This document shows, one piece after another, positions 5,090 through 30,385 of a stretch of DNA of 38,188 nt (its first letter is position 1; each line of letters starts with the position of its first letter). The translations under genes and the position numbers were made by a program. This DNA comes from a virus (lineage: Duplodnaviria; Caudoviricetes), in the IMG/VR virus record IMGVR_UViG_3300043414_000985, positions 1-38,188 of that record; one strand, given 5' to 3'. The notes under the pieces are model-generated. The model had not been told where the DNA came from, did no database searches, and saw only the letters and a program-made list of their open reading frames with translations.

Positions 5090-5092
5090 AGG

Positions 5093-8132: not shown

Positions 8133-8186
8133 AAGCAAATTTCCCCCAGTAGCGGGAATGCTAAAAGCACTTGGCACACTAGCCAT
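7500..8186 (-). CDS. glycine-rich tail fibre or adhesin protein, paralog A
   Basis: Same length (228 aa) and colinear with 6801-7487. Confidence 0.8.
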   Translation of the reverse strand: MASVPSAFSIPATGGNLLSIQYLTSGTAATYTTPAGVNHLLVLAWGGGGQGGGDAGSVGSSAAGGGGAAGAFSQAFIANPAATYTYTVGAGGTGASAGSNPGTTGGNTTFGLITATGGSGGAGGTASASVGPGVAGGASVAASGGNFNGSSQAGQYSYYLSGVAIGGAGGSTIYGGGGTNTFESGGSTNGNAATGYGAGGSGSANNNIGSNQTGGAGSGGLILVYQYA

Positions 8187-8517: not shown

Positions 8518-8526
8518 ACTTTCTCC

Positions 8527-11778: not shown

Positions 11779-11792
11779 CCTTGACCTCTTTA

Positions 11793-12170: not shown

Positions 12171-12195
12171 TTTGTAAATCCTTTTACAAAGTTAA

Positions 12196-14358: not shown

Positions 14359-14369
14359 TAGAAATATCC

Positions 14370-15509
14370 TTATTTCTTAAATGCGCTGTGAAAATGAGAG
14401 AGCGCTGTGCCTCCTGTCGCCCCAGCTATGGCCGCCAAAGCACCCCACTTAGCGCCTGACTTTCCTTTTTCTCTAAGTGCTGCCATTAAGTCATTAACGC
14501 CATACTCTGGAAACTGGTCTCCAAAAGCATGTTTAAATTCTTTATTGTTTTTAAGCGCATTAGATAGGTCGGCAGAACTTATCTTACCTGCCCTATGTTT
14601 TTTTATTGCTGAAAGATTTTCAAATGGCGCAACATCTTTTCTATATCCAGCGCTTAATTTGCTATATCTTCCAGCTAGTTCTGGATTAGCACTTATTTGA
14701 TCTTCTATGCCTTGCTTTAGTTGTGACCTAAGATTTTGTGCGTCTTTAATTGCTTTAAGTTTTGACGGGGGAAGGTCTGCTCTTTTTTCGTATTTGCGAA
14801 CAAAGTTACCAAGTTCACTTTGTGCCCAATGTGCGTTTTCTAAAGTAGGATTATCTAAATATTTACGCAAATACTCGTGGTAGTGTTTAGTGGTATGCTT
14901 AATAATATTATCAGCTCCTACGGGGGGCACTACCACATGGTGTACACCATTTTTTGTGGCTTCTTTAAACAAGTCTCCATAATGCCCTTTGTATGCTTCC
15001 TTGGCTTTCTGTGCAGAGCCTGCAATCTTTTCGCCAATAGCATGCTTAGTAGCACCTAAAGAAGGCCCCAATGCCGCACCCAAGGCTGTAGATAGCCCCC
15101 TGTCTCCCTCAGAATCTTCACCTGTTAAATATCCTGCTGCAGCACTTCTACCAGCATCCGATGCTATTCCCGCTAATCCGGCAGGACGGCGCAAAGCATT
15201 TAAAGCTTTAAGAGCTTTAAAGGCCGCGCCACCTGGACCCAAAAAACTTCCAGCAAAATGCCCTATGTCGGTGCTTAAACCTGGTTCTAAATACTGCTTA
15301 AGATCTATATGTGGCACAGGCCCTGGACCTTCTCTTCCTAGCGCGTGGAATGGAGCATTTAAAACGGATGCGCCCATATTAATTAAACCTTCTGCCGCGC
15401 CAGAACCGACACCTTTTCCAAGTTTTTTAAGTGCACTAATAAAACTATTTCGATCTTCGTCATAGTCTTCTGGGTTAATATCATTGTCTTCAAATAAGTT
15501 TCTAGCCAT
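14370..15509 (-). CDS. DNA ejection/internal virion protein (gp16 position)
   Basis: Gly/Ala-rich hydrophobic N-terminal helices, helical body; synteny. Confidence 0.6.
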   Translation of the reverse strand: MARNLFEDNDINPEDYDEDRNSFISALKKLGKGVGSGAAEGLINMGASVLNAPFHALGREGPGPVPHIDLKQYLEPGLSTDIGHFAGSFLGPGGAAFKALKALNALRRPAGLAGIASDAGRSAAAGYLTGEDSEGDRGLSTALGAALGPSLGATKHAIGEKIAGSAQKAKEAYKGHYGDLFKEATKNGVHHVVVPPVGADNIIKHTTKHYHEYLRKYLDNPTLENAHWAQSELGNFVRKYEKRADLPPSKLKAIKDAQNLRSQLKQGIEDQISANPELAGRYSKLSAGYRKDVAPFENLSAIKKHRAGKISSADLSNALKNNKEFKHAFGDQFPEYGVNDLMAALREKGKSGAKWGALAAIAGATGGTALSHFHSAFKK

Positions 15510-17344
15510 TATTTGCGACTCACTATTTCTATAACTTTATCAATACTTAAACCACTCTCTCTTGCGGTTTTTTCTACGTCTTCCATGGTAAATTCTTTAC
15601 CTTTAAGGTCCTTCATTACGGTATCTTCTGCTTTTTGTTGCACTTCTTTGCTTTTGGCAAGTGGGATAAATGCACCACTAGCATCTAGTTTGGAATGCGC
15701 TTCTTCACCAGCCTTATTCAATACCTCTAATGCATCTCCATGTGCCCCAGCAACTTTAGCTTGGATTGACTGTGGCAACTTGGCTATTATTGCAGAAGTA
15801 AACCACGGCCACCCCTGTTGTAATGCTTTCTGCTGTTCTTCTTGAGAATATTTCCCTTGGTTTTGTCGTTGAGATTGCACTTGATGTGCCGCTATTTCTG
15901 GCACCAATATTTTTGCAACAGCAAATCTTGTTAGGCGATCTTCAAGAATAGCCTTCCTTTTTGGACTTGTTCTAGGGTTGTTATATTCATCAACATCATT
16001 ATCGGCTCTATTACTACCACCCCAACCCAAATACTCATCAGGAATATTGTAACGAGCTAGCGCTACTTTTCTTATTTCGTTAGAGATTGTAGCTTTTGTT
16101 TCCATCGTCCTAATAGCTGCAGTTTTTTGAGCATCTTTTCCTTTGCTTTCTTTGTTTATAGCATCGTCAAAAGTTTTAACTTCTGCAGAGTCTTTACCTT
16201 TTTGCAGAACAGCGTCATCTCTTTCGCGCATAAGTTTTTGTAGTTTAGACTCTGTAGGTAAACGTAGCCTTTCAGAATCTCTAACTGCCTTCAATGTCTG
16301 AGCTTCTTTGGCAGCTAAGTCTATTGGAAATCTCTCTTTTTGTTGCCTGTTCTCTTCTTTTTGCCAAGCATTAGCAAGTCTAGTGGCCTGCTCTTTCAGA
16401 GGATCGTTTTTCTTTGCGGATTTAAGCGCTTGTTCCTTTGTCTTGTTCTCTAGTTTTGCACCCTTTATCTTTTCTGGATTTTCTTCTTTACTAAATCTAA
16501 GATTTTCTTCAGCTTGTTTTGCAGCAGTATTTTGTTGTTTTGTAACAGAAGGATTGGTTTCTTTGTTAAACCTATTGGTTTCTTCAAGGCCTTGGTTTTG
16601 CAATAATAATTGTTTAACAATTTCTGGATTTGTTTGTATAAGATGTTTAAGGTTTTCCATTGCTGTTTTGTTTGCTAATTGTTGTCCTTGCTCCTGTAAT
16701 GGCCACTGTCTAAGCATGTGGTTAGTTTGCTCTTCATTCCACCTATTGGTTTGGTACTGTCCTTCTCTAGAAAGTGGATCGCTCAGCGCTCTATGGTTAT
16801 ATTCTTGCTCTAGCGCATTATTTTGTCTTTGTTGTTGTGTTAATGCACCAGGATGTAATTCTTTTTGTTGTTCTCGTAATTGTTTATTATAGGCAATTCT
16901 TTCCATATGTTCTTGTATAGTGAGATCTTTCTCATCCTTTAAGAATAGATTACGCATTCTTTTGTCATAATTGTTTAGCTCGCCCTCATCAATAATCTGT
17001 GGGTTTCTTTGTTCGTTAAAACCATGTGATTGTTTGCTTAACATATTTTGCAACACTAATTGTTGCAGGTTTAGTGGGTGCTGTTCTGCGCTTTGCTGGA
17101 TATTTTGAGCCGTTTGTTGGTTACCAAGGTTAAGCCCATATAGATTTGCGTTCTCTACTTCTGGAGCCACTCTAGCTTTTTCCCCATAGATTTTATTTAT
17201 AAAATCTTGGTATTGTTCTTGTTGGCGTATTTTCTTTGGTTCGCGCGCGTTCTTATACCCTTGCAACACATTGGAAAATATATTGGAAAAACCAGAGTAA
17301 TCTGTTCCTTGCTGTGTAGGAAAATCTATTCTGTTTAACCCCAT
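15509..17344 (-). CDS. DNA ejection protein (gp20 position) with 25-aa coiled-coil repeats
   Basis: Q/E/N/K-rich helical protein with Pro every 25 residues; synteny. Confidence 0.65.
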   Translation of the reverse strand: MGLNRIDFPTQQGTDYSGFSNIFSNVLQGYKNAREPKKIRQQEQYQDFINKIYGEKARVAPEVENANLYGLNLGNQQTAQNIQQSAEQHPLNLQQLVLQNMLSKQSHGFNEQRNPQIIDEGELNNYDKRMRNLFLKDEKDLTIQEHMERIAYNKQLREQQKELHPGALTQQQRQNNALEQEYNHRALSDPLSREGQYQTNRWNEEQTNHMLRQWPLQEQGQQLANKTAMENLKHLIQTNPEIVKQLLLQNQGLEETNRFNKETNPSVTKQQNTAAKQAEENLRFSKEENPEKIKGAKLENKTKEQALKSAKKNDPLKEQATRLANAWQKEENRQQKERFPIDLAAKEAQTLKAVRDSERLRLPTESKLQKLMRERDDAVLQKGKDSAEVKTFDDAINKESKGKDAQKTAAIRTMETKATISNEIRKVALARYNIPDEYLGWGGSNRADNDVDEYNNPRTSPKRKAILEDRLTRFAVAKILVPEIAAHQVQSQRQNQGKYSQEEQQKALQQGWPWFTSAIIAKLPQSIQAKVAGAHGDALEVLNKAGEEAHSKLDASGAFIPLAKSKEVQQKAEDTVMKDLKGKEFTMEDVEKTARESGLSIDKVIEIVSRK

Positions 17345-18090
17345 GATGGGAACCCCTCAAACTTTCCGCCTTTTCCAAAAGCTTCGCCAGGCCCAGAATT
17401 GCCAAAATATGTTCCTGCACCTTGTCCAATAAAGTTAAGCAAAGCATTCTTTTTGTTTGCTTGGCTTTGGTTTTGTCCATATTGCCCTTGGTAGGAAAGG
17501 TTTGCTTGATTGCCAAGACTATTACCCAAATAGTCTGCAAGCCCAGTAGAGGCACCATAGCCTAAGTTTTGTTGCTGTTGAGCGCCTTGTAGGCCTTGTC
17601 CGTATAAGCCTAGAACATTATTAAGGAAAGATTGCATGTCACCACTTAGAAGCTGTTGGATAAGCTGTCCTTGCTGCATCTGGTCATTCTCTGTCCCAGC
17701 ATAACCGCCTTGCGCAGCAGTGTTGCCAAGGTGTTTCCCTAGTTGTTCTTTTTGGAAGTTGTAGCCTTCGCTTGGTTGATAGCCACGCATAAGAGCGTTT
17801 AAAAAAGAAGTTGGGTCTTGCATTAGTTGGCCGTATTGGCCTTCTAGCGCTTGTCCTTGGCGCTGTCCTTGGTCTATAAAAGGCTGGTAGTTTTGACGAC
17901 CAATGCCCGCTACTTGGTCCAGGTAAGGCATTGCGGCGCTTGCTGGGTTACGCTGGCTGCCACCTAATGCGCCGCCTTTTCCGCCTAATGCTCCGCCAAG
18001 AGCGCCACCAACAGCGCCGCCCACTGGGCCGCCAAAATAACTACCTATTGCTGTTCCTGCTATGGGCAATGCTTTGCTAAAAAAAGACAT
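17335..18090 (-). CDS. DNA ejection protein (P22 gp7-like)
   Basis: Gly-rich N-terminus GTAIGSYFGGPVGGAVGG; QPF..QG, PSEGYNFQ..Q, NTAAQGG pattern. Confidence 0.7.
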   Translation of the reverse strand: MSFFSKALPIAGTAIGSYFGGPVGGAVGGALGGALGGKGGALGGSQRNPASAAMPYLDQVAGIGRQNYQPFIDQGQRQGQALEGQYGQLMQDPTSFLNALMRGYQPSEGYNFQKEQLGKHLGNTAAQGGYAGTENDQMQQGQLIQQLLSGDMQSFLNNVLGLYGQGLQGAQQQQNLGYGASTGLADYLGNSLGNQANLSYQGQYGQNQSQANKKNALLNFIGQGAGTYFGNSGPGEAFGKGGKFEGFPSWG

Positions 18091-18101
18091 TCCTTTGTCT
18101 C

Positions 18102-18350
18102 CTATGGGAAGCTCGCTGTTGTAAACTTTACGAGGCTTCCATTAACTAATCCTACAAAAACTGGTGGGGAGTGATCCAGACAATACCAGATAGTTCCATT
18201 TGGCATAAAGCCAGATGCCGTTGTTATATCTGCGGTACTTAGACTTGGAACAACCCAGCCATCGTCGCTTAGATTGTCCTGCATGTTCTGGTTTAGCTCT
18301 TCGTGATAGTTTTCTTGGTCTTCATTTTGGATATAAGTTGGTATTTGCAT
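18102..18350 (-). CDS. small structural hypothetical protein
   Basis: 82-aa ORF coupled (TAATG) to the gp10-like gene. Confidence 0.65.
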   Translation of the reverse strand: MQIPTYIQNEDQENYHEELNQNMQDNLSDDGWVVPSLSTADITTASGFMPNGTIWYCLDHSPPVFVGLVNGSLVKFTTASFP

Positions 18351-20023
18351 TATGCGTATACATCCACAGAGCCGTTGTAAACTATAAATCGACTTTGGCC
18401 GAAGAACTTAAACTTTAATGTAAGGTCGTTTGCAAGGCCCAATCTGTACCAGCTAATAATATTTTGCCTGTGGCCTACAGTATTTAATGGTCTACTTACA
18501 GTATTACCCCAGGTTATGCCGCCGTCAAAGGAAAGGCTAAGGTCAACGCGAGGCTGGTACGCTGGATAAACTGGAAGGCCTAGATTAGAGCCGCCATTAG
18601 GGTTAATTCCACTATCCTCGGTTACATAAGAGCTTCCCCAGGCGGTCGTGTATATATCTGGGTCGCTTGGTGTAGAGTCTTCTGTAATGTAGTAATTGAC
18701 GTTGTTTAAAAGCGATAAGTCGCTTACATTTGGGTCACATCCTTGCTCCATAGTAATTGTAGTTCGGTTTGCTATGTAGCGCGTACCATCCTCCATACGC
18801 AAGCTGCCTGGAATGCGCACAAAGGGAATATCGTATATAAGCTCTGGGTTGTTTGCGGGGTATATATTATCGTTGTAGTTCCAGATGTTTGTGCTTGCCT
18901 GGTAAATGCTTCCGTTGTTTAAAGATATAAAATAAATATTTTGGTTAAAGTAAACAAAAGCTCTAGCTGGATGATAGTTAGTATTACCATCTGTTAAGTT
19001 AAAGAACTTTTGGGTTGTAAAGTCGTAGACGAGGGTAAGGTTGTCTGCGGCATTATAAAAAGTAATTTGATAGAATAAGTGGCCATCTTGCCTGTAGAAC
19101 ATTGCTGTAGATTGCGCTGGATACTGGAGCTGCCCAAGCAGGTAGTCTATGCCGTCTGTAGATATTGGCTGGTATCCTTGTCCTGTGTAGACCATTATTA
19201 CCGGAGCGTTACTTTCGTTTACACCAAGCCACGCCACGTACTTATCACTTGTAGCAATGGTGCTAACAGAGATGCAGCCATAGTCGATATTAATAGTAGA
19301 ATTGCGCCTATAGTTTTGTAGGCCACCGATTTGAGTCCAGATTTCGCACACCGCAGTTCCCAAAACTAGGACGTTGTTCCCCTGACCGGGGAGCCTAACT
19401 ATTGCTTGTGCGAAATCTGGTTTCGTTTGCAGGGCAAGCTGCGTGTTCTGTACGATGGCGGATGCGCCAGTATTAGCGCTGTAGTTATAGGCGTACCAAA
19501 ATGCACCAGCTCCAGTTTTATTAGCATTGCCAAACAAAAAGAATGTGTTGTGGTAGCAAACATAAGTTGGCGATAATGTGCTGCTAAACGCCCCGTTTGT
19601 TTGGATGCTTAAGTTTGGCGCCCCTTGCCAATAATAGATGTAGGCATTAAGGCCATCTACTATACATATTTGACTATTAAGATTTTCGTCCATAAACACC
19701 TCCCCATGAGAGGTATTTAAAGAGCCAATAATTGTAGGCACTAATCCTTGTTCTATTCGATAAACATTTGCATTAATTACAGCTATTAAAAAATTACCGC
19801 GTATAGAGTGAAAGAATCCGCGCCCTTGACCGGCTTGCAATAGCTGCAATACCTTTTGATATCCCGCAAAGTTTACAAGCCACCCTTCATTAGCTGCTTC
19901 TGCGCCAGTGCTAATAAACATATTCTGGGTAAGCTCGCTGCTAATCTTATTATAACGACCAAATACGCTGCTACCTACCATATTAAGAGGTACCGATTGT
20001 GCCTTGGGCGTTATAGGGCGCAT
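18350..20023 (-). CDS. packaged-DNA stabilization/tail hub protein (P22 gp10-like)
   Basis: YRQDGHLFYQITF...TLVYDFTTQ, LSLSFDGGITWGN...WYRLG motifs; synteny. Confidence 0.85.
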   Translation of the reverse strand: MRPITPKAQSVPLNMVGSSVFGRYNKISSELTQNMFISTGAEAANEGWLVNFAGYQKVLQLLQAGQGRGFFHSIRGNFLIAVINANVYRIEQGLVPTIIGSLNTSHGEVFMDENLNSQICIVDGLNAYIYYWQGAPNLSIQTNGAFSSTLSPTYVCYHNTFFLFGNANKTGAGAFWYAYNYSANTGASAIVQNTQLALQTKPDFAQAIVRLPGQGNNVLVLGTAVCEIWTQIGGLQNYRRNSTINIDYGCISVSTIATSDKYVAWLGVNESNAPVIMVYTGQGYQPISTDGIDYLLGQLQYPAQSTAMFYRQDGHLFYQITFYNAADNLTLVYDFTTQKFFNLTDGNTNYHPARAFVYFNQNIYFISLNNGSIYQASTNIWNYNDNIYPANNPELIYDIPFVRIPGSLRMEDGTRYIANRTTITMEQGCDPNVSDLSLLNNVNYYITEDSTPSDPDIYTTAWGSSYVTEDSGINPNGGSNLGLPVYPAYQPRVDLSLSFDGGITWGNTVSRPLNTVGHRQNIISWYRLGLANDLTLKFKFFGQSRFIVYNGSVDVYA

Positions 20024-20029
20024 TGTTTA

Positions 20030-20746
20030 CTATACATTTGGTAGAAATCCATTGCTTAAATTTGCAACGGCATAGTTAGTAGAAATGCTGTTCCCAAGCG
20101 TGCTTATATTGGTTAATCTTAGGTCAGCTGGTGCGCTGCTCTTTCTTATCGCCAACTCGTATCGCATTAGTTCTTTTTCCGCTTCTAATGGCATTGTAAA
20201 GTTGTATAAGGCGCATATTTTCTTACACAGGCGATATTTTAAATAGCTTAGGTAAAAGCCATCCAATAGAAGTGATAGGTCTTGTTGTAAATCTGTAATA
20301 GCAGTTAGGCTAAAAAGCCCTGTAATTTCCAAAGGATATGCTTGGTCTGGAAAGAAATATAAAAATATATTTGAGCCGCCATAACATCTTTCATAGTACC
20401 AATCCCAAGGAAGGCTGTTAATATTGTTAGCTCTAGCCGTTCCCCAATATTGGTTTCTAAAATTTTGGTACATGCAAAATCGAACATCGTTAATAAAAAA
20501 TGTAAGCGTTTCTGCTTGTACTAGACCGGGAATAAAATACTTTTCTTGCCCTATTACGCCATTAAAAGAAAACTGTGTTGTCATATAAGGCAACATGTCG
20601 CTTTCGATAGTCTTATCGGAAAGGATTTCGTTAAGCAAAACAAGTCCGTCGTTTATTTCTAAACCAGACACTTGTTGGAATTGCCGAGAGACTATACCGG
20701 ATGTGTAGTAGGCATACGAGATTAAATCTGTTGCAGTTGTAACCAT
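20030..20746 (-). CDS. head-tail adaptor (P22 gp4-like)
   Basis: TATDLISYAY..SGI...INDGLVLLNEIL N-terminus; position before the gp10-like gene. Confidence 0.75.
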   Translation of the reverse strand: MVTTATDLISYAYYTSGIVSRQFQQVSGLEINDGLVLLNEILSDKTIESDMLPYMTTQFSFNGVIGQEKYFIPGLVQAETLTFFINDVRFCMYQNFRNQYWGTARANNINSLPWDWYYERCYGGSNIFLYFFPDQAYPLEITGLFSLTAITDLQQDLSLLLDGFYLSYLKYRLCKKICALYNFTMPLEAEKELMRYELAIRKSSAPADLRLTNISTLGNSISTNYAVANLSNGFLPNV

Positions 20747-20760
20747 TTATCCCCCTAAAT

Positions 20761-20784
20761 AGCCGGGAGCGCTGGCCCCCGGCT
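20761..20784 (-). other. GC-rich intergenic stem-loop
   Basis: agccggg...cccggct inverted repeat; no clear U tract. Confidence 0.5.
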
Positions 20785-20812
20785 CCAAAGCAGCGAACCA
20801 CCCTGGGATGTC

Positions 20813-21586
20813 TTACAACTCGTCTAAATAGCCCTGTACATTTAAAGCTACAGCATCGCCAGCGCTAGAGACTTTGTACTTTAAGTCTGGTAGAGGTGTA
20901 GCGTTAACGCCAACCGGACAATCTACAACCCCCAGTAAAGCAGTTGCGGTTACTGGCGAGCTAAATACCGTTGCAGCACCCGTACCGCCATAAGGCTGTA
21001 GGAATACACTGTCAAAGGCTGTTCCAGCAGTAAGGGCAACTTCTACTCGGACAATAGACGCCGTTAAAGGTACTGTCTTTTCAAGATTAACTGCGGTATA
21101 GGTAGTGGCTGCGCCTGCAGTGATACCCGTCGCAATCGGCGCATCATAGATACACCATCTGCTAGTACTGTTAGTGCCTGCTCCTTGGCTCTCCGCTGAC
21201 TGCCACCATGCAAGGGCAAAGTGTGTGCTTGAGTTTGAGAAAGCCGCGCCAATGCGTCTTTGCATGTCATAACCAACAGGAAGTGTAGGAGCTGTAGAGC
21301 TAAGCGATAACAAGCAACAAGTATTTGCCTGCAATGTGCTAGAACCTACAATCCAAATGTAGTACATAGTAGATGCTGCAAAAGTTCCGGTATCTAATGC
21401 ATTAGCACCATTAGTAGCAGCATTAAGCGTAAGGGCTGTTGGATTAATAATGTCGTTGGTATTGGTGACGTCTCTTGCTGCGCCAATTGCAATAGTAAGC
21501 GTTGTGTTGCTTGCCCAGGTAATGCCAAGACCATTTACATAGAGCACGCCAGCATTATAGAGCGTCGTATTTGGAGTGATTGTCAT
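20813..21586 (-). CDS. virion structural protein (decoration or fibre-like)
   Basis: 257 aa, Ala/Thr-rich; GANALDTG...YYIW...LSLSSTAPTLPVGY..RRIG motif; follows coat gene. Confidence 0.65.
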   Translation of the reverse strand: MTITPNTTLYNAGVLYVNGLGITWASNTTLTIAIGAARDVTNTNDIINPTALTLNAATNGANALDTGTFAASTMYYIWIVGSSTLQANTCCLLSLSSTAPTLPVGYDMQRRIGAAFSNSSTHFALAWWQSAESQGAGTNSTSRWCIYDAPIATGITAGAATTYTAVNLEKTVPLTASIVRVEVALTAGTAFDSVFLQPYGGTGAATVFSSPVTATALLGVVDCPVGVNATPLPDLKYKVSSAGDAVALNVQGYLDEL

Positions 21587-21607
21587 GTTAAATTCCTTTT
21601 AAGTTAA

Positions 21608-21625
21608 TGCGCTCCGAAGAGCGCA
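21608..21625 (-). terminator. C(UUCG)G tetraloop hairpin after the coat gene (weak terminator or mRNA stabiliser)
   Basis: tgcgctc ttcg gagcgca on the minus strand; poor U tract. Confidence 0.6.
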
Positions 21626-21631
21626 CACAAA

Positions 21632-22882
21632 TTACACAGGGTAAATAAGAGCCATTCCGTAGTCGGGAGCCAGCAATTTACCCCAAATACAATCTCTAAC
21701 TGTTCCAATATTTCCTGTTCCAAACACAGCGCCATAGTAATGACGGAAAGACGCGCCGCTATCTGGGTCGACAGAGTTACCTGTAGGATAAGGGACCTGC
21801 ATTGGAAGCTGTGGCATAGCAAGGAATAATGGGTTACCAGAATAAATTAATCCTGCTCTGTGACTAGGTAAGAATTTAACTTGCATACCAGCAACAATCG
21901 CATTGTTAATATTTTGGCTGTTAGTGGCATTAACTTGTAAAGGAGGATTAACACTTACTGTAACTTGTGATCCACTTGTGCTCGCAGCCTGTGCAGTAGC
22001 CTGTACCTGCACTTTGCTAGCCGATGGTAAGTGACCTATATATGTAAGAAAACGCATGTTTGGATAACCAGTTATACCATCTAGAAACTGGAACTTATCG
22101 TATTGCTGCACAGAATTAGCGTCGTTTGCTTGATAAGTTCCACTAAAAGTAATAGCAATTACTGCGCCATTTGCATCTAGTGTGGTGCTAACAACGGTAA
22201 GCGTTGTTCCGTTTTGTCCTTCTGTGCCTGCTGTGTGTACGGGTAGCAGGTTAGAGCTGTACCATTCGCAGTCACTAAACTCGCCTAATTCCCAGCTGTT
22301 GGCTTCTTTGTTGTTTCGCTCCATTGCGAATTGGCCCAAGTTAGAGCTAACAACGCCAGGAATTGAAACAAGAGGCAAGTAGCCTTTGCATTTGCCCATG
22401 GCCGAACCGAAATCGCGGTACTGAGCAACTGCTTGTGCCAGTTGTAGGGAACTATTTATGGGGTTTACCCCGTCCCCGTAGAATCTGTAAGTAGATGTGA
22501 CGTTTACTGTGGCAACATCCGACTCAATCTGTGCCCCAATTTCTTCCATTGCTGCCTTACCAAAGCGAGCCATGTAATCTTCTACATTAAATAGGTATTG
22601 CTGAGAGGTAAGTAAGTAGGATGAGCTAATTGGGCTTGCACATGTAAGTGCGGCGAGTCTTTGATCCGCACCTTGGAAGTTCGCTACTAAGGATTTAGTA
22701 GTAGTAGCGCGAGGTGGGAGTTCGATATTAACCGTTTGACCTAATTGACCAGCGGGTTGTTGTTCGTGAAAACCAACAAACTTTTTATTTGCTGTTTTAA
22801 TGTATGCGTATCTATTTTGTAGAAACTCTAGTTCTGCCATCTGGAATGTGGGTACATTGACCAGGATATTATTTGGGATCAT
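21632..22882 (-). CDS. major capsid protein (P22 gp5-like coat)
   Basis: 416 aa; GQLGQTVNIELPPR, insertion domain, RDCIWG C-terminal pattern; follows scaffold. Confidence 0.88.
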   Translation of the reverse strand: MIPNNILVNVPTFQMAELEFLQNRYAYIKTANKKFVGFHEQQPAGQLGQTVNIELPPRATTTKSLVANFQGADQRLAALTCASPISSSYLLTSQQYLFNVEDYMARFGKAAMEEIGAQIESDVATVNVTSTYRFYGDGVNPINSSLQLAQAVAQYRDFGSAMGKCKGYLPLVSIPGVVSSNLGQFAMERNNKEANSWELGEFSDCEWYSSNLLPVHTAGTEGQNGTTLTVVSTTLDANGAVIAITFSGTYQANDANSVQQYDKFQFLDGITGYPNMRFLTYIGHLPSASKVQVQATAQAASTSGSQVTVSVNPPLQVNATNSQNINNAIVAGMQVKFLPSHRAGLIYSGNPLFLAMPQLPMQVPYPTGNSVDPDSGASFRHYYGAVFGTGNIGTVRDCIWGKLLAPDYGMALIYPV

Positions 22883-22949
22883 GTTTGGGTGTGTCCTATA
22901 TTTTCGCTAAAAAATACAGGCGTTTAGCAAGTTTTAAGTGTTTGGCTTC

Positions 22950-23615
22950 TTAGCCTCTAAGCCAAGAAGCGCCTTTAAAACTTTGTTTTCCAGCTGCTAC
23001 GCCTGCTCCAGGGGACGGCTTTTGACGTGACAACGGAGGTTGTGCGGTTACATTTTCCGCTTGTGCTTTTTCGTTTTTCGCTATTGAGTCGGATAAATCC
23101 TTCATCATTTTGCGCGCCATTTTTTCGCTAACCTTTGCGGCAGCGTGTATGGCTGTTAGCTTTGCTGGATTTTGCACAAGTTCTCGCATTACTGCGGGAG
23201 TGTTCTCTGTCTCAGCGGCTAAAAAAACTACTTCCGGGAAAGCTTGCGGCTCGAAGTCGCCCATTATTTCGTCGAGATCTGGAAAGGCTTCTTTGCCTTT
23301 GTGCATCTTGTCGAAGTATTGAAGCGCTACTGTTTCCGCCGCTTGCTGTCGCTGCTTCTGTATTAGATCGTTCTGCTCTTGCTGCTGCTTCTCTTGGAGC
23401 TTTTGCATAATCCTAGATTCTATTTCTTCAGGATTTGCTTGACTCGCAGCCGCTTGAGGCGCTTGCTGTTGCTGCATGCGCTGGTCAAACTCTCTAGTCA
23501 TTCGCTCTGCGACTTCTGCTTTTGTCCGGTGCACTATCTTGTCTACATGCGATTGAGGGATTAATTTTTCCTCTGTCGCGTCTGTAGCAATCTGTCCAAC
23601 ATCCATGTTGTCCAT
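22950..23615 (-). CDS. scaffolding protein
   Basis: Charged coiled coil between portal and coat; Pro-rich then basic C-terminal end. Confidence 0.8.
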   Translation of the reverse strand: MDNMDVGQIATDATEEKLIPQSHVDKIVHRTKAEVAERMTREFDQRMQQQQAPQAAASQANPEEIESRIMQKLQEKQQQEQNDLIQKQRQQAAETVALQYFDKMHKGKEAFPDLDEIMGDFEPQAFPEVVFLAAETENTPAVMRELVQNPAKLTAIHAAAKVSEKMARKMMKDLSDSIAKNEKAQAENVTAQPPLSRQKPSPGAGVAAGKQSFKGASWLRG

Positions 23616-23786
23616 CTACTCACCCCGTTTTCCCTCGGCAGGTACACCCAATAACCAATTGGTTGGCCAACTTTACCCTGTTGGTAGGTTCACCCAGGAG
23701 AAAGCCTGGTCTTTAGTATTTGTATAGTAAGAGAAATACCGTTTGTCGAGGAAAAGCGAATGACGCGATCCCTCGACCAGGTAGGT
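23616..23786 (-). promoter_or_regulatory. structured 5' leader of the scaffold gene (candidate tandem pseudoknots)
   Basis: Three CCT-N-stem-AGGG-stem' units plus gtcgagg/cctcgac hairpin in a 171-nt intergenic gap. Confidence 0.55.
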
Positions 23787-25889
23787 TTAGTGATTGGTAG
23801 TTATTTGAGCGCCGAACTTAATAGCAAGCTCTACAGCAGTCTTTGCGTCCTCTGCTGCGATGCGTTGCGCCTCTAAGTCTTGTTTAGTTTCCATATCGGC
23901 GACTTCGGCCATGGTTTTTGCGTAAAGTATTTCTACCTTTTGCTTTTCAACCGCGACTTTTGCAGCTTGTATTAATTGCGCGCCTTCTGTTTCTAATTGA
24001 CTCTGCTCAATCTTAGCCATTTCTGTTTTCTCAAATGCTTGCGTCTGTAGCATAGAAGCCTCGACCATTGGGTCGCCTTTCTTGGCTGCTTCTTCCTGCA
24101 TCTTTTGCATCTTTTCTAAGTATGCTGGCACTTTCTCTTTGAGGCCTTCAATGCCGCGTATATCTAAGTTGTCTAGAATGGTTTCTAGTCCCTCAGAACC
24201 CATAAAGTTCGCGAACACGGGCGCGGTTTGGATTAGCTTAATGCACTGGTCGAGAGCCATCGTCTTCTGTATTTCGAGATTTACGCCCGCCTCTACTTTT
24301 ATTTGTACGCTGTTAGGGTCGTACATCATTGAAATAGAATCTTTGTTTGTTGGGTCGTTAATTATCTTGTAAGAGCGTTTTCCATCGGCTTTTCGAATAG
24401 GAATAGAGCGAGGTGTTACATAAAACTTTGGTATTAAATCTACAACTATTTCTGCAATGCGATTAATAAATTTTATGTAACCGACCATGTACGGAGCTGC
24501 AGCGCTATTAGCTTGTATTGCTCCTAGACCTATTGCTCTTCCGCTAACATTGTTGTCGTTTGTCCCCTGCACCATATTTAAATTACCGAGTATCATCTGG
24601 GTAAGTTTACTTGTGCCCATAAAAGTATTTTCGACAATGGGCGGTGTTGGGGTGCGCTGTATTTCCATGGGTGGGTCAAGGCGAACGTTGGGGTCACCAT
24701 TCAAGAATTGGTTATATACTAACGTGTCTGCTTGCTGCACATTTTGATAAACATGCTGGAAATCTTTGGGTATTGCTTCTAGTGGTACTTTAATCTTGTG
24801 TGCAACCATTCCTTCAATTTCTGCTGCAACTGTTTGACCGGAGAAGTTCATTAGCTCTTGAACACCCATCGCATTGTAAACATAAGGGCGTGTCATTTCG
24901 TATGTTGAGCCGCTGTTTCCCTCTTTTAGTGTGACGCTATTTCCTGCGCCCCACACCAGCGGTAACATACTGTAACTGGTAGGTTTATATTCTAATATTT
25001 GGTTCTGCGTCATCGTGTAGCGCTCAATTTCCGGCAGAACTGTCCAACGCTCTTCTAGTATTTGCGGTGGCTGTTCAATGTACCCTGCCTTGGCCCATTG
25101 CTCGCAGAAGTCTTCATAACGCTTCTTTTGTACCGTGTGGCCATTGGTAAGCTTTACTATTTTTACTTTACTATTTTTCTTTTGATAGAATTCTGCTGTT
25201 AAGATGATGGGCAGGTCATTGTAAGTAAATTGCCATTGGAATTCACCCAAGGCGCTTGCAGAATAGAACTTTAATCCTTTTGTAGACTTAGTGCCGTAAA
25301 TACTTTCAAAGTCTTCTTTCGTTTTTGGAACAAGCTTAAAACAATAGCCGCCATCTCCTTTGTGACTCTTTACGGCCATTGGGTCAAACCCGCACAACGA
25401 AGGGTCAAATACACGCTCTACAATAATCTTTTGCTCAAAAGACATTGGGTTTACATAGTCTGTACTTACTTCTCCGACCGTAAAACCGCCGCCCATCATG
25501 TCACGAAAGAAGTTGTATTGAAGGCCGTCATTAGCAGCTTCACAAAATATCTCGCTTAGATGCCACTGCAGCACGTTAAGCTGTTCCATAAACTCTGGGG
25601 TCATTTGTTGTATGCGCGCGCCGTCGGCTGCTCTTGCCATCATTGTAGGCTCGTGCTTTGCAAAGTCGCCCATTTGAGAACTGATAGCCGCCTCTAGAAT
25701 ATTAAACTCTAATGGCGGCTTGTGTAGTATATTTAGTGTGCCGCGTTTTTGCTGGTTGATAGCGGTTTCAAAAACAAATCGCATAAAAAGATTGTATCTA
25801 TCTGCATTTTTGCGATTTGTGTCATAAGATAAATTAATCTTCTTTTCTATCTCTTCCAGTTTCTCTGTGTGTTTTTTCGCAATTTCCAT
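23787..25889 (-). CDS. portal protein (P22 gp1-like)
   Basis: 700 aa; KPPLEFN, FDPxA...DGGYCF, SGRAI motif, C-terminal helical barrel; follows TerL. Confidence 0.9.
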   Translation of the reverse strand: MEIAKKHTEKLEEIEKKINLSYDTNRKNADRYNLFMRFVFETAINQQKRGTLNILHKPPLEFNILEAAISSQMGDFAKHEPTMMARAADGARIQQMTPEFMEQLNVLQWHLSEIFCEAANDGLQYNFFRDMMGGGFTVGEVSTDYVNPMSFEQKIIVERVFDPSLCGFDPMAVKSHKGDGGYCFKLVPKTKEDFESIYGTKSTKGLKFYSASALGEFQWQFTYNDLPIILTAEFYQKKNSKVKIVKLTNGHTVQKKRYEDFCEQWAKAGYIEQPPQILEERWTVLPEIERYTMTQNQILEYKPTSYSMLPLVWGAGNSVTLKEGNSGSTYEMTRPYVYNAMGVQELMNFSGQTVAAEIEGMVAHKIKVPLEAIPKDFQHVYQNVQQADTLVYNQFLNGDPNVRLDPPMEIQRTPTPPIVENTFMGTSKLTQMILGNLNMVQGTNDNNVSGRAIGLGAIQANSAAAPYMVGYIKFINRIAEIVVDLIPKFYVTPRSIPIRKADGKRSYKIINDPTNKDSISMMYDPNSVQIKVEAGVNLEIQKTMALDQCIKLIQTAPVFANFMGSEGLETILDNLDIRGIEGLKEKVPAYLEKMQKMQEEAAKKGDPMVEASMLQTQAFEKTEMAKIEQSQLETEGAQLIQAAKVAVEKQKVEILYAKTMAEVADMETKQDLEAQRIAAEDAKTAVELAIKFGAQITTNH

Positions 25890-26025
25890 TTGCTTCTTCC
25901 TCGCATATATGCGTGTAAGCTATTCCATTAATAGCAAAGTGAAGGGTATCTCCGTATTCGTATTGCGTATAGCTTTTAAAAATTTCTACTGCTTCCAATA
26001 TTTGTTCTGCTGTTGGAGTTCCCAT
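25834..26025 (-). CDS. hypothetical protein
   Basis: 63-aa ORF coupled to the TerL stop (TAATG). Confidence 0.55.
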   Translation of the reverse strand: MGTPTAEQILEAVEIFKSYTQYEYGDTLHFAINGIAYTHICEEEANGNCEKTHRETGRDRKED

Positions 26026-27572
26026 TAATAATAAGCCCTTCTTGCTGTTAGTTTATCGCTAAACGCTTGCGATAATCCTTTAGACACAATAGCATCGTCT
26101 TTACTAGACTCTATTAAAGTGTTAAATGTCTTGTCTATTAGAGCGATTTTGATAGAATCGTAGCATGTGTCGGCCTTGTCATCCCAGCGATGACTATCAT
26201 TCGCTGTAATCTTTACCATATGTTTGATGCACTCGTCTTTGTGTTTGACGCCATCTGTAAAAGATATTAATCCAGAACTTATGTATGGTTGCATCTCAAT
26301 GTAACGAGCAGCTTTACTACCGCTTGCGCGCGTGCGTTTAACTTCGCGAATGTTTAATCCGCGTATTCTTTTAAGAGAGCTTATTAGTGTTACGCCGGTT
26401 GTTTTTTGTTCTATCGCAACAAGAGTTGGCTGGCATTTGTGTAGCATGCAATCGCTGTAGAATGAGAGCAGCTCTTGCTCTAAGTCTGCGGGCTCTACTC
26501 GTATCTCTAAGCAGTCTATCCAATGCAGCGCAAATATGTCTGTCTTAATCCCATTGTCTTTTATCTTGTACAAACCCCAAAAACTAAACACTGTGGGATC
26601 GTTGTGTGTAAGTGGTGTTTCTGCTGTATCTATTGTCAGAAAAGAAAGTAAAATCTCTGGCTCTTCTTGTAGTATTGCAAAGTCTCTTTCTCTAAAGAGT
26701 GCGCCACCGGCAGGACTTGGTTTTTGTTGATACTGCGCGGAGAACACGTAGTTGTTTAAGCGCTGTTTCTCCAATAGCTGCTCTTTAGTTATTACTTGCG
26801 GGCACAAAACGTTGCCAGCCGCATCTAATGCGTCTAGAAGCACACGCTTAAACACACGCTCGCTTTTGTCGCTAAATAGAAAATTAAAGATGTCATCTTC
26901 GTGCAAGCATTGTCCGATCGCAACGATCGGAACAGTCGGAGAGCGAACGCGTTGTACTATTGTTTCGTTGTAGTTATCTATGACAGACTGTCTTATTGTG
27001 TCGCTAAAAACTTCGCTAGCTTTGTGCAAATCGTCGAGCAATAATGCCCCTGTAAACGCCGTGTCGCCTGTTTCGGCTGGGCCGCCTGCGTTATAGCCTG
27101 TGATAGAACCAAGCGCGCCAAACGCTTTAACTTGCGCCCCGTCCGTCGTCATAAAATGGTCTTTAGCTTTAATGTCGCTGCGTATACTAATGCCGAAGAG
27201 ATCGCGGTAGTAGCTGTTGCTAATAATGCGCCTAATAAACTCCGTGTGCTTCGCTGCGAGCTCGTGAGAATAAGAGATGTAAATATATTCGCTGCGAGTA
27301 TAGCGCGACAAAGTCCAGGCGACCCACATGCAAATTAGTGTAGATTTAAAATGCCCTGGAGGAACATTGATGCCTAAGTTTAAAGTATCGCCGCGCACAA
27401 CACTAGTGAGCTCTCTGCAAATAGTTATTACGTGCGACTCTCGACCGATCGGCACAGGCATAATGAAAGGCTTGCCAGTAACAAGGGGGAAAAATACTTG
27501 TATAAAAGAATAAAAGCTGCCCCAAAGCTGCGCCCTGACTTCGTCTGCTTTGTCGCTAATAATCTTTGTCAT
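26025..27572 (-). CDS. terL: terminase large subunit
   Basis: Walker A-like INVPPGHFKST, Walker B LLLDDLHK, AQYQQKP, nuclease IDTA...HRWDDKAD. Confidence 0.95.
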   Translation of the reverse strand: MTKIISDKADEVRAQLWGSFYSFIQVFFPLVTGKPFIMPVPIGRESHVITICRELTSVVRGDTLNLGINVPPGHFKSTLICMWVAWTLSRYTRSEYIYISYSHELAAKHTEFIRRIISNSYYRDLFGISIRSDIKAKDHFMTTDGAQVKAFGALGSITGYNAGGPAETGDTAFTGALLLDDLHKASEVFSDTIRQSVIDNYNETIVQRVRSPTVPIVAIGQCLHEDDIFNFLFSDKSERVFKRVLLDALDAAGNVLCPQVITKEQLLEKQRLNNYVFSAQYQQKPSPAGGALFRERDFAILQEEPEILLSFLTIDTAETPLTHNDPTVFSFWGLYKIKDNGIKTDIFALHWIDCLEIRVEPADLEQELLSFYSDCMLHKCQPTLVAIEQKTTGVTLISSLKRIRGLNIREVKRTRASGSKAARYIEMQPYISSGLISFTDGVKHKDECIKHMVKITANDSHRWDDKADTCYDSIKIALIDKTFNTLIESSKDDAIVSKGLSQAFSDKLTARRAYY

Positions 27573-28131
27573 GTTTCTTTTGCAGCTCTAACATTTTGTT
27601 AAGCCGCTCAATTGTTGCATCTTGTTCAACAATTTTATCTCGCATATCTTCTATTACTTTGTCGCCAAATATTTTGGGGAGTAAGCGAGATGTATGCCAG
27701 TGCATGTGTTTTAATATTAATGCGTCGCGCGCAACAGCTACGGCGTTTGGCGCATTGCTTTTTCCATTGTGATAAAAATCTTTTGCATTGTTTTTAACCA
27801 ATTCTTCGCATTCTTCTTCGTGTAAAACCGCTTGTATTTTCTTTGCTTCCCAATATTTGCTCCCAAACTCAGGAATTTTAAAACGCCACCTTCTAATAGT
27901 TTGCTCGCTTGGAATTTCTGGATATCTTTTGCAAATTTCTTTTTGCGACATGGGGTGGATAGAGACTAAATCGCAAATAATATTTCCAATTTCATCTGTG
28001 TATTCGCACTCTGGCGCTCCAGTAAAATATGTTTTTATTCCAGCTTTTTCAGCAGCAACTGCGCGCTTACTTTTTGCTTTTCTTTTTGTGCGCGGTAATG
28101 CTTTCTGTTCTTTCGTTAGTTTCTCTGTCAC
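27556..28131 (-). CDS. terS: terminase small subunit (Sf6 gp1-like HTH)
   Basis: YTDEIGNIIC...ICK..PEIPSEQTIRRW...RLLPKIFGDK; upstream of TerL. Confidence 0.85.
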   Translation of the reverse strand: MTEKLTKEQKALPRTKRKAKSKRAVAAEKAGIKTYFTGAPECEYTDEIGNIICDLVSIHPMSQKEICKRYPEIPSEQTIRRWRFKIPEFGSKYWEAKKIQAVLHEEECEELVKNNAKDFYHNGKSNAPNAVAVARDALILKHMHWHTSRLLPKIFGDKVIEDMRDKIVEQDATIERLNKMLELQKKHDKDY

Positions 28132-28258
28132 TTTCTTCCTCTTTTTCTTTTGTTTCTATCTCACCAGAACCCGCACACTCTATGCAGTCCACTTCCTTTA
28201 AATACCCCAAACCGGTAATTTTTTTCAATCCGCGGCACGCTGGACATCTAATTAGCAT
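28067..28258 (-). CDS. DnaJ-type Zn-finger small protein
   Basis: CPACRGLK...CIECAGSG; GAGG RBS. Confidence 0.65.
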   Translation of the reverse strand: MLIRCPACRGLKKITGLGYLKEVDCIECAGSGEIETKEKEEESDRETNERTESITAHKKKSKK

Positions 28259-28322: not shown

Positions 28323-28370
28323 ACACTATATATAGTATAAGTTGATTGGCTTATACACTACATATAGATT
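28323..28370. promoter_or_regulatory. tandem NrdR-box-like operators
   Basis: ACACTATATATAGTAT (28323-28338) and ACACTACATATAGATT (28355-28370), 32 bp apart; NrdR consensus acaCwAtATaTwGtg. Confidence 0.7.
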
Positions 28371-28383
28371 TTAAAGGTGTCGA
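28355..28383 (-). promoter_or_regulatory. candidate leftward (late) sigma70 promoter
   Basis: TCGACA-17 nt-TAGTGT on the minus strand; -10 lies inside the second box. Confidence 0.4.
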
Positions 28384-28416
28384 ATTCGCTACATTTATAA
28401 ATAGATACAACAAATG

Positions 28417-28445
28417 TTGACATAAAATATTACATGTGAGATACT
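28417..28445 (+). promoter_or_regulatory. strong rightward sigma70 promoter
   Basis: TTGACA-17 nt-GATACT with AT-rich upstream sequence. Confidence 0.8.
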
Positions 28446-28447: not shown

Positions 28448-28709
28448 TTGCAGATGAGAGAGATTGTTAAACAAAAACGGAGAGCAAAATGTACGAAGTT
28501 ATTGACAGGAAAACAAAACAGGTGGTAGGTGTTTACTGTTCTCTGCGCAGAGCTAGTAACAAAGCTAATAAGCTAGATTTAGAATACGGCGCTCACAGAT
28601 ATTATTGGAGGAGCATTTAATGCGTAAAGTATTGATGACATGGAATTTAAATTGAGATACGCATCTTTTTGCAGATGAGAGATTAACAACAAAAACGGAG
28701 AGCAAAATG
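28448..28709 (+). repeat. duplicated leader/RBS
   Basis: ttgcagatgagaga at 28448 and 28669; aacaaaaacggagagcaaaatg at 28470-28491 and 28688-28709. Confidence 0.9.
28489..28620 (+). CDS. small early phage protein (43 aa)
   Basis: MYEVIDRKTKQVVGVYCSLRRASNKANKLDLEYGAHRYYWRSI; GGAG RBS after promoter; not in ORF track. Confidence 0.7.
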   Translation: MYEVIDRKTKQVVGVYCSLRRASNKANKLDLEYGAHRYYWRSI

Positions 28710-28922
28710 AAAGACTTTAGAGCAAACACACTACTAGAAGACACAATTTGGGGGCTTAACAACTTCCAAAAAGAATTAAACTTAAATAACTACGGTAATT
28801 TAAGAAAAGAGCAATTAATAGAATTAATTAATAATGTACACAACAAAGTAGAGACTCTTAAAAAGTCTTTAATGAAAGAAGTGGGCTTCGAGTTTCCAGA
28901 CGCTTTTCTGGGCGGAGAGTAA
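28707..28922 (+). CDS. hypothetical protein
   Basis: Same leader/RBS as the 28489 gene. Confidence 0.75.
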   Translation: MKDFRANTLLEDTIWGLNNFQKELNLNNYGNLRKEQLIELINNVHNKVETLKKSLMKEVGFEFPDAFLGGE

Positions 28923-28923
28923 A

Positions 28924-29091
28924 ATGACATACTACATAAACAAATATACCGGAAACATCTATACTGCACACTACATTTTAAGTAGATGCATGGGAAGTTA
29001 CGACGACTTTGGCGTAACTTACTTGGAGCTTGGGACAGAACAAGCAAATAAGCTGTTAGAGAAAATGTACGCGACAGTTATTAAATTTTAA
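28924..29091 (+). CDS. hypothetical protein (55 aa)
   Basis: MTYYINKYTGNIY...; GGAG RBS, 1 nt after the previous stop. Confidence 0.6.
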   Translation: MTYYINKYTGNIYTAHYILSRCMGSYDDFGVTYLELGTEQANKLLEKMYATVIKF

Positions 29092-29149
29092 ATAAATTAA
29101 ATAGAACTATAAAGAAGCTGGTTTTTAAACTTAAAAAAGGTAATTAAAA

Positions 29150-29317
29150 ATGTCTTACATAAAAGAGTATCTAAATGAACTACAGCAAGTAAAAATATTA
29201 GTCGACTACGTAACAGCAGAAGATCGACTGCTCTTTCAAGAAAAAGGGGAAGATAATCTAATCGGCTTAGAGGCGGAGGAAGAAAAAGAAGAGCTTTATT
29301 GCTATACAGAGTTGTAA
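29150..29317 (+). CDS. acidic hypothetical protein (55 aa)
   Basis: MSYIKEYLNELQQ...EAEEEKEELYCYTEL; AAGGT RBS. Confidence 0.6.
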   Translation: MSYIKEYLNELQQVKILVDYVTAEDRLLFQEKGEDNLIGLEAEEEKEELYCYTEL

Positions 29318-29389
29318 CACAAACATCTTAGTGATAACATTTGTTTACGTTGCGATACTTGCTTTGAGTTTGGCTTGTAATGCAACGCC

Positions 29390-29415
29390 GGGGGCTTGAG
29401 CGCCCCCATTTTATT
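29390..29415 (+). terminator. intrinsic terminator-like hairpin
   Basis: gggggc ttgagc gccccc attttatt. Confidence 0.6.
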
Positions 29416-29428
29416 GTGGAGAATTTAA

Positions 29429-29629
29429 GTGGCAACAAAAAAGAGCAAAAGAGGGATGCATATCGGCGTGCGCGTGCGAGATGACACGTGGGAAGCGCTT
29501 AAAAAATATACCGAATGCTATGGAAAAACAACCAGCGGTTTAGTAAACGAGCTTATAATTAACTTCTTAAGAAACAGTGACTTACTACTTGGACCACTCA
29601 ATAAATTTAACAAGGATTGGGAAGAATGA
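29429..29629 (+). CDS. ribbon-helix-helix (Arc/CopG-like) regulator
   Basis: HIGVRVRDDTWEALKKY...TTSGLVNELI strand-helix-helix pattern. Confidence 0.7.
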   Translation: MATKKSKRGMHIGVRVRDDTWEALKKYTECYGKTTSGLVNELIINFLRNSDLLLGPLNKFNKDWEE

Positions 29630-30018
29630 GCGACGATGGACGGTCTCTTTATACAGCAAAAGAAAGAATAGAATTTGGTTCAAAGGTACAGTCACGCTGT
29701 ATTTTGAGGAATGGTAAAGTAGATTGGAGTGCTTTAGCGACTTTTGCAACAGAAATAAATGTAAACAAAACAACGCTTTACGGGTGGTATAATAGATATA
29801 AAGAAAACAACAATACAGAAGTAAAGACAAAAGAAGAATCTAATAGCGCACACTTACATATCGCAGCAGCACAAACTCAACGCACTATAAAAGAAATAGA
29901 TAAGCTGAAAATAGAAATTGACACTCTAAAGTCAGCTATTAAAGCTTTGACTAAAGAAAAAGAAATGTTAGAAAATCTAGTAGAATACTATTATCAAAAA
30001 AATAGAAGCAACAAATAA
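29626..30018 (+). CDS. HTH DNA-binding protein with C-terminal coiled coil
   Basis: ATFATEINVNKTTLYGWYNRY HTH; heptads at the C-terminus; ATGA coupling. Confidence 0.7.
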   Translation: MSDDGRSLYTAKERIEFGSKVQSRCILRNGKVDWSALATFATEINVNKTTLYGWYNRYKENNNTEVKTKEESNSAHLHIAAAQTQRTIKEIDKLKIEIDTLKSAIKALTKEKEMLENLVEYYYQKNRSNK

Positions 30019-30056
30019 TGTTTGATATAGAAAATAACAAGGATTGGGAAGAATGA
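30018..30056 (+). CDS. 12-codon coupling minigene MFDIENNKDWEE
   Basis: Starts in TAATG, ends in ATGA; contains a 23-bp copy of the RHH gene 3' end. Confidence 0.45.
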   Translation: MFDIENNKDWEE

Positions 30057-30385
30057 GAAAAAAAACAGGACAATTGCAGCCAATCTATAGCGCAATCGAC
30101 GTAAAAGAACTACTAGAGCAATATAAGTACGCTGTTACAGAAAGAGAAGCTTTTATATTAGAAAAACGATTAGAACTATACACTCTTGAAGAAATCGCTG
30201 TTTTAATAGAGCGCACTAGAGACAGAGTTAGACAATTAGAGAGACAAGCGCAGACTAAACTTTTATCAGCATGCGCTGGCGTACCCATGTTTTCTCGACA
30301 AATAAATGAAGGACCGGAAAAAGAAATTACTGTATCCGCACGCATGATAAGAGAAAGTCTTAATAATAAGTATCGCTTATCTTAA
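30053..30385 (+). CDS. sigma-70 region 4 domain protein
   Basis: TEREAFILEKR...TLEEIAVLIERTRDRVRQLERQAQTKL. Confidence 0.85.
   Translation: MRKKTGQLQPIYSAIDVKELLEQYKYAVTEREAFILEKRLELYTLEEIAVLIERTRDRVRQLERQAQTKLLSACAGVPMFSRQINEGPEKEITVSARMIRESLNNKYRLS

Follow-up and report, generated by a model that had tools for sequence, protein, structure and literature searches.

Does the host repressor NrdR have an operator in front of the packaging genes of a tailed phage and, if it does, which transcription would it govern? Published work describes NrdR as loading dATP plus ATP or ADP before it can bind paired boxes. The question arises from an intergenic gap in a viral record of 38,188 bases (100% complete by CheckV, with no end repeats), the whole of which was analysed and is called the window here. 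An earlier note made from the letters of this DNA had picked out NrdR-like boxes in the gap and proposed that host NrdR keeps the terminase and virion genes off until replication drains the dNTPs. We therefore ask what the boxes are, which promoter they could act on, how far they are kept among relatives, and what role they may have in infection.

Genome organization around the site

The window is the genome of a P22-like tailed phage, and the sequencing runs that contain its DNA are labelled freshwater or aquatic metagenomes. The late genes form a leftward block that spans 28258 to 4153, and the replication genes, including an O-like initiator and RtcB, form another leftward block from 35837 to 30635. 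A block of small rightward genes lies between the two. The features on which the argument draws are as follows.

4153..25889, minus strand: remaining leftward late block, with head closure, internal virion and tail-fibre genes among others
4153..25889, minus strand: probable scaffold, within the leftward late block
21632-22882, minus strand: major head protein
23787-25889, minus strand: P22-like portal
26025..27572, minus strand: terminase large subunit, TerL (phrog_38, E 2e-73)
27556..28131, minus strand: terminase small subunit, terS (PF20901, phrog_1482)
28067..28258, minus strand: small zinc-finger ORF (CxxCxG) that opens the leftward operon and precedes terS in many family members
28489..30385, plus strand: divergent block of small genes between the replication and late operons, ~1.9 kb
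29429-29629, plus strand: Arc/RHH-like ORF, candidate phage regulator
29617-30018, plus strand: HTH ORF, candidate phage regulator
30044-30385, plus strand: stand-alone sigma70-region-4 HTH ORF, candidate phage regulator

The box pair sits in a 230-bp gap between the start of the zinc-finger ORF (28258, minus strand) and the first rightward ORF at 28489. Because the divergent 1.9-kb block separates the late operon from the replication operon, the late operon likely needs a promoter of its own within this gap. A single-sequence model of ORF 29429 has a low pLDDT of 58 and shows two helices after an extended start, which is compatible with an RHH fold while falling short of proof. The claim that the window carries no ribonucleotide reductase (RNR) gene was borne out for the families covered, as neither the class I alpha subunit (TIGR02506) nor the ATP-cone (PF03477) was found in the complete contig, and the RNR families in PHROGs matched 0 of 60 ORFs. 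A comparison with Rfam gave zero matches across the window.

Several other elements of the genome were observed. The replication block encodes a full-length RtcB RNA ligase (33699-34904; phrog_1075, E 9e-142), which may counter tRNA-cleaving defences. Non-coding DNA ahead of the replication initiator (32595-33069) has three copies of a 36-base repeat, D7, that includes TTGAC, and these copies are candidate repeated promoters, operators or origin elements. A leader of ~43 bases with a ribosome-binding site and an ATG at its end stands before each of the first two rightward ORFs (28448-28492 and 28669-28710; the duplication was taken partly from repeat D18, and its longer match was traced by eye), and a 21-base leader is repeated before ORFs 29617 and 30044 (at about 29610 and 30039). 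With these duplicated leaders, the rightward region looks like a cassette-type early region. Four short ORFs share a terminal coding repeat of 36-66 bases (D3 and D4, at 2955-3653 and 1018-2714), and three Lar-like ORFs lie in the same early block.

A pair of NrdR-type boxes ahead of the late operon

28323-28338: NrdR-type box 1, ACACTATATATAGTAT, 15/16 to consensus, 17.0 bits
28355-28370: NrdR-type box 2, ACACTACATATAGATT, 13/16 to consensus, 10.7 bits

The two boxes start 32 bp apart and are separated by a 16-bp spacer. Box 1 lies 65-80 bp upstream of the first late ORF and has the highest single matrix score in the window, and the whole pair occupies the interval 65-112 bp before that ORF. 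Taken together, the boxes agree with the consensus at 28 of 32 positions, and the maximum in 500 local dinucleotide shuffles of the window was 24. The boxes that had been placed at 28323 and 28355 are thus present at the proposed spacing and stand above all local shuffles.

To be independent of the NrdR box consensus (printed in PMC4009431), a matrix was built from natural nrdA operators. The nrdA loci were fetched from 30 genomes related to G001, a bin described below, and 29 upstream regions were examined, an unpublished one being left out; a palindromic pair model seeded with C4/G13 alone gave 21 regions with pairs of at least 20 bits. With this matrix, as the earlier note had proposed to score it, the window pair reaches 27.6 bits against a maximum of 24.0 in 300 shuffles, the second-ranked pair in the window reaches 13.6, and the natural pairs range from 14.3 to 37.0 bits in leave-one-out scoring. 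A second matrix, made from 8 pairs found among 20 upstream regions of genomes related to another genome described below, G299, again places the pair at the top of the window, less sharply (19.6 versus 14.6 bits; natural range 15.6-36.1).

Agreement with published rules of NrdR binding

The six conserved positions of the NrdR box, with a critical role for C4 and G13 and an important one for A6 and T11, are set out in PMC13584703 together with a floor of 63% A+T between C4 and G13. Both phage boxes have C4, A6, A8, T9, T11 and G13, with C4 and G13 8 bp apart, and the A+T content between them (8/8 in box 1 and 7/8 in box 2) is above that floor. For four NrdRs, PMC12051234 gives a binding optimum at spacers of 15-17 bp and a second window near 26 bp, and reports that spacers of 15-17 bp repress in vivo; the spacer is 16 bp here and 17 bp in the close relative described below. 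As reported in PMC12051234 and PMC13584703, a single box is not bound and two 16-bp boxes are needed. The latter source adds that NrdR binds heterologous boxes well across species, and that loss of G13 in one box abolished binding.

The third, degenerate core that the earlier note had placed 31 bp further on (28386-28401) is a half-site without G13, at -6.8 bits. As the loss of G13 abolished binding in PMC13584703, this core does not count as a box. Another half-site, at 28273-28288, was tried as a fourth box and dropped, its C-to-G distance being too short and its score below zero. The putative NrdR-type operator consists of one pair.

The pair resembles the bacterial RNR operators described in PMC9110341, PMC12051234 and PMC13584703 (E. 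coli nrdAB, nrdHIEF and nrdDG; S. coelicolor nrdAB and nrdRJ) in its two 16-bp partial palindromes, six positions, A+T-rich centre and 16-bp spacer, as well as in lying about 65-110 bp ahead of a start codon. Phage box 1 is identical to E. coli nrdAB box 1 at positions 4-14. Unlike the RNR operators, the phage pair is followed by zinc-finger, terS, terL, portal and capsid genes, in a genome where an RNR gene was undetected, and has no convincing sigma-70 promoter overlapping it. In its letters, the pair passes the tests of a bacterial NrdR operator and lies outside the canonical RNR regulon. We consider it highly probable that the pair is an operator of host NrdR and that NrdR binds it.

The boxes in a close relative

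A relative of the phage is present in run X4, which comes from a different study than the possible source sample, and its contigs are mostly less than 90% alike to the window. In the alignment of one X4 contig to 28236-28344 there are 19 changes and 3 gaps; 12 of the 14 listed changes fall in the 27 bases 28288-28314, to the left of box 1. Since the 5 unlisted changes lie within about 30 bases of the alignment ends, box 1 (with the ~30 bases around it) has at most 5 changes, and it has no gap. A counterpart of box 2 was found in the 30 loose bases beyond 28344, at a spacing of 33 bp and with a score of 9.6 bits. It differs from box 2 at positions 1, 5, 7 and 15 and keeps C4, A6, A8, T9, T11 and G13 intact, while the spacer has drifted. 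This pattern in the predicted box matches what selection by NrdR predicts; the probability that four changes would all miss the six conserved positions by chance is 0.12, for one contig. The region 28399-28491 also aligns in the X4 relative. In runs X2 and X3 the boxes are uncovered.

Two other stretches of this alignment were observed. At 28275-28287, on the upstream side of the zinc-finger ATG and 17-29 bases from it, X4 has the same 13 bases as the window, and the adjoining 27 bases differ at 12; this island resembles half an NrdR box, departs from the C-G distance rule, and may be part of a late promoter or an activator site. At 28301-28309, 12-13 bases from box 1, substitutions in the X4 relative would create what we take, by eye, to be a DnaA-box-like sequence, and the likeness is degenerate in the window itself. 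Several natural nrdA promoters have DnaA-box-like 9-mers just past box 2.

Promoters in the gap

28417..28445, plus strand: predicted rightward sigma-70 promoter, TTGACA-17-GATACT plus TG, 10/12 match

The divergent promoter that had been named at 28417 is confirmed as the top consensus match of the intergenic region, and its -35 starts 47 bp beyond box 2. In the leftward direction, the three best candidates match at 8/12 each and overlap the boxes. These are chance-level matches, since among 1000 shuffles of the gap region the mean number of such leftward 8/12 sites is 3.9, and 97% of the shuffles have one or more. The leftward promoter favoured earlier, TCGACA-17-TAGTGT (28383-28355, minus strand), does exist at 8/12, but at this level, and the X4 relative loses the A and the final T of its -10, so that it was rejected as the real late promoter. 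With leftward candidates only at chance level, the sequence gives no indication of where late transcription starts, and we infer that the weak leftward core fits an activator-dependent late promoter.

No Q homologue was recognized among the ORFs, and ORF 30806, tried as a Q-like factor, matched only unnamed phage clusters in the ESM Atlas. The absence of a Q-like factor noted earlier therefore holds for Q itself, but the adjacent divergent block encodes a sigma70-region-4 HTH protein (30044-30385). The further proposal that NrdR provides late timing without a phage factor is unsupported, because the weak core fits activator dependence and three candidate phage regulators are encoded nearby. 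As no leftward promoter rises above chance, NrdR is more likely a brake on a weak activator-dependent promoter than the only late switch, and it probably works beside a phage activator, not instead of one.

The strength of the match at 28417 raises the question of whether NrdR instead controls the rightward promoter, and with it the small early genes and regulators, so that any effect on late genes would be indirect and pass through a phage activator. This promoter is the only strong match in the gap, the DNA around it (28399-28491) is among that aligned in the X4 relative, and S. pneumoniae nrdHEF has both promoter hexamers downstream of box 2. However, the boxes end 47 bp before the -35, at about -129 to -82 from the predicted start and outside the polymerase footprint, and in the 21 natural nrdA pairs it is usually the -10 that lies under the upstream box, next to a TTG-type -35 immediately before it. 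We regard control of the rightward promoter as rather unlikely; the late operon is favoured over it as the target by position only.

The site in more distant family members

The wider family was represented by 113 redundant loci (1.24 Mb) with TerL 37-61% and portal 22-70% alike. In 30 loci the zinc-finger gene could be viewed together with 150 bp or more of upstream DNA. All 30 lack a pair at this place, and L204 and L205, whose portals are about 70% alike, are among them. Conservation of the site upstream of terS, which had been suggested as a check, is thus seen in the key bases of box 2 in the X4 relative, at 33 bp, but not in these more distant loci. Any pair of at least 20 bits is found in only 2 of the 113. 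In locus L255, a distant member (portal 44%), a 30.7-bit pair with 32-bp spacing precedes a scaffold homologue and the major head gene by ~150 bp; in L220, a 22.1-bit pair precedes an O-like initiator, a replication gene. In 20 rounds of shuffling over the 113 loci, 0.25 loci per set reached 20 bits, 0.15 reached 22 and none reached 27, so that the L255 pair is taken as real and the L220 pair as doubtful. Because most family members are without a pair, the NrdR site appears to be a lineage-specific add-on. The putative operator has been acquired sporadically, and in this P22-like family it precedes late genes in two cases.

Absence from the same position in 30 family loci, together with the A+T-richness of the region, is what would be expected of a chance likeness in the spacer, or of a functionless relic. 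Yet the observed scores were reached in 0 of 500 local shuffles by consensus and in 0 of 300 by matrix, and the key bases are kept in the X4 relative though the flanks have drifted, which makes this explanation improbable.

In L255, a RelE/RelB-like toxin-antitoxin pair (12487-13104) lies between portal and scaffold, and the NrdR-type pair stands between the toxin-antitoxin genes and scaffold. The terL homologues of L001-L003 and L030 contain an in-frame insertion of ~300-350 residues (ORFs of 858 and 802 aa), probably inteins.

NrdR-type pairs across phage genomes

The pair pattern with a free gap occurs in about 800 IMG/VR stretches, as estimated from 10/64 parts of the collection, against 14 for a C/G-swapped control (~57-fold). 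Among 111 distinct pairs, the spacing is 31-32 bp in 75 and 41-43 bp in 12, and a looser scrambled control has 31-32 bp in 5 of 54 (p 3e-13); the spacings of these predicted sites fall in the two NrdR binding windows. Within ORFs lie 5 of 80 real pairs versus 38 of 54 controls. The downstream gene was taken as the longest downstream-facing ORF and was scanned at 67 loci, 3 duplicates and 10 loci without a chosen ORF having been left out of the 80 with full flanks (40 short loci were used for spacing only). RNR genes account for 0 of the 67, terminase, portal, head, connector or tail genes for 19 (a count that includes related phages), and repressors, antirepressors or excisionases for about 9; the remainder are recombination, primase, integrase, a sigma factor or unassigned. 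The late-gene share of 19/67 does not differ significantly from the 2/15 of intergenic controls (odds ratio 2.6, p 0.33), and a first control gave 3/12 loci, with one duplicate dropped and one locus without a chosen ORF. Predicted NrdR-type operators that phages carry at places other than RNR genes are thus common and non-random, and a special link to late genes is no more than suggested.

In the prophage-like contigs L037, L040, L086, L095 and L096, an NrdR-type pair lies between a repressor and a cro, antirepressor or excisionase gene. Through these pairs dNTP levels could feed into prophage induction, or the pairs could be NrdR-box-like operators of phage proteins.

A possible resemblance of phage operators to NrdR boxes bears on the locus under study as well, where the boxes form a 16-bp direct repeat (28320-28335 and 28352-28367) that reaches 3 bases beyond the NrdR box. 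Such a repeat could be bound by a phage protein, encoded by ORF 29429, 29617 or 30044, for example as activator sites for the weak late promoter; three candidate DNA binders are encoded next door, and that promoter looks activator-dependent. Against this reading, the X4 relative has lost the 3-base extension ahead of box 2 but retains the NrdR contact bases. No good further copy of the repeat lies near the regulator genes, the one match with 3 mismatches (at 34920, inside an ORF) comparing with a chance mean of 0.88. Hundreds of unrelated phages also have the same motif with NrdR phasing. A tblastn search of 115 family loci gave no close homologue of the three regulators, so that co-occurrence of site and regulator was judged on L204 alone, which has an Arc-like gene in the same place and no boxes. 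We judge binding by a phage protein to be unlikely, marginally more so than control of the rightward promoter.

Host and infection data

No close cultured phage was found (best TerL 32%), and the lists of RtcB and portal homologues gave no usable host names. A family portal was found in 2 of 401 and 1 of 14 genomes. G001, a Pseudomonadota bin with a phage relative on a 39-kb contig that may be misbinned, encodes NrdR, as does G299, which carries a distant family prophage (portal 36%) among host genes on a 326-kb contig. NrdR is reported in 77% of bacterial genomes and absent from about a quarter in PMC13584703. No RNA datasets were found among the runs containing phage DNA.

A view of NrdR during infection comes from the temperate phage SpSL1, for which PMC6755750 reports that in lytic infection no host genes are induced more strongly than the NrdR-controlled operons at 50 and 90 min, and that the NrdR regulon is already up at 10 min, before the late genes. 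The induction supports the premise that NrdR leaves its sites as a phage replicates. Its onset by 10 min, however, suggests that release of NrdR may by itself come too early to set what is late. A matrix scan of the SpSL1 genome revealed no pair (best 8.1 bits).

These data bear on whether the pair, as a true NrdR site, works in trans by being a decoy whose copies soak up NrdR when the genome multiplies, derepress the host RNRs and feed dNTP supply, in which case its place before terS would reflect the largest free gap. That no phage RNR was detected fits such a decoy, as do the many kinds of gene that follow pairs in other phages (the late bias being not significant), the varying location of pairs within the family (L255, L220) and the lack of a clear promoter overlapping the pair. 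On the other hand, the genome has a single pair (next 13.6 bits), although several would serve better; replication in SpSL1 drains dNTPs and induces the regulon with no phage pair; and it would presumably be hard to keep a high-affinity site transcriptionally neutral when an operon begins 65 bp away. A decoy is an unlikely explanation, if the least unlikely of those set against control of the late operon.

Discussion

The operator reading of the earlier note is upheld in part: the sequence rules, the matrix scores, the close relative and the phage-wide phasing speak for it, but its third box, its leftward promoter and its replacement of an activator are unsupported. What the pair does is a separate question. 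We see about an even chance that it is a brake on the leftward late operon, lifted by dATP drawdown or by titration as genome copies accumulate. In a resting or newly infected cell, NrdR-dATP/ATP on the pair would block or road-block leftward transcription. Phage replication would use up dATP and multiply the copies of the site, and NrdR would leave. The late promoter would then fire, probably aided by a phage activator, for which the sigma70-region-4 protein (30044) is a candidate. This model supposes a host with NrdR, a late start site within the boxes or upstream of them, and a timing of virion synthesis by NrdR release. The locus alone does not demonstrate late-gene control.

Late control in well-known phages is encoded by the phage, as by Q antitermination in lambda and P22 and by the Ogr, Mu C and RinA/ArpU-type activators. 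The task is the same here, to delay packaging and virion genes until replication, and the late operon has a stand-alone sigma70-region-4 HTH gene in its vicinity. Unlike those systems, no Q homologue was recognized among the ORFs, the divergent block interrupts read-through, and the boxes would add a host-encoded negative input.

The nearest phage precedent found is that of the Spo0A boxes in the Bacillus phages phi29 and Nf, as described in PMC2731898, where sites for a host regulator in a phage control region tie the phage to host state. Like the NrdR-type pair here, those boxes differ between close phage relatives (PMC2731898). In that account Spo0A signals sporulation, and what it mainly represses is early promoters and replication, whereas the pair here would respond to the dATP pool or copy number and act on the late operon. 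No paper describing NrdR boxes at phage late promoters was found in open-access PMC and bioRxiv full text, where supplementary genome-wide motif tables could list prophage sites. In the sources found, a phage-resistant E. coli transposon mutant has nrdR among its disrupted genes (PMC13670838), and a cyanophage table lists an NrdR homologue (PMC8790148).

More broadly, phages may have wired NrdR into late promoters repeatedly and independently, with at least two origins in the P22-like family (before terminase here and before scaffold-capsid in L255). The result would be a host-encoded, dATP-sensing checkpoint between replication and packaging, a proposal that we hold somewhat more tentatively than the brake at this locus. 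NrdR has been described almost only as a repressor of RNR genes. The locus is a compact test case, with one pair, a 230-bp gap and two divergent outputs. If NrdR does act through an operator on a phage packaging operon, the way in which small phages that lack a Q-type factor can link virion synthesis to replication progress would have a simple explanation, and nucleotide-pool stress, whether from hydroxyurea or from thymine- or dNTP-depleting defences, would be a predictable input to phage timing.
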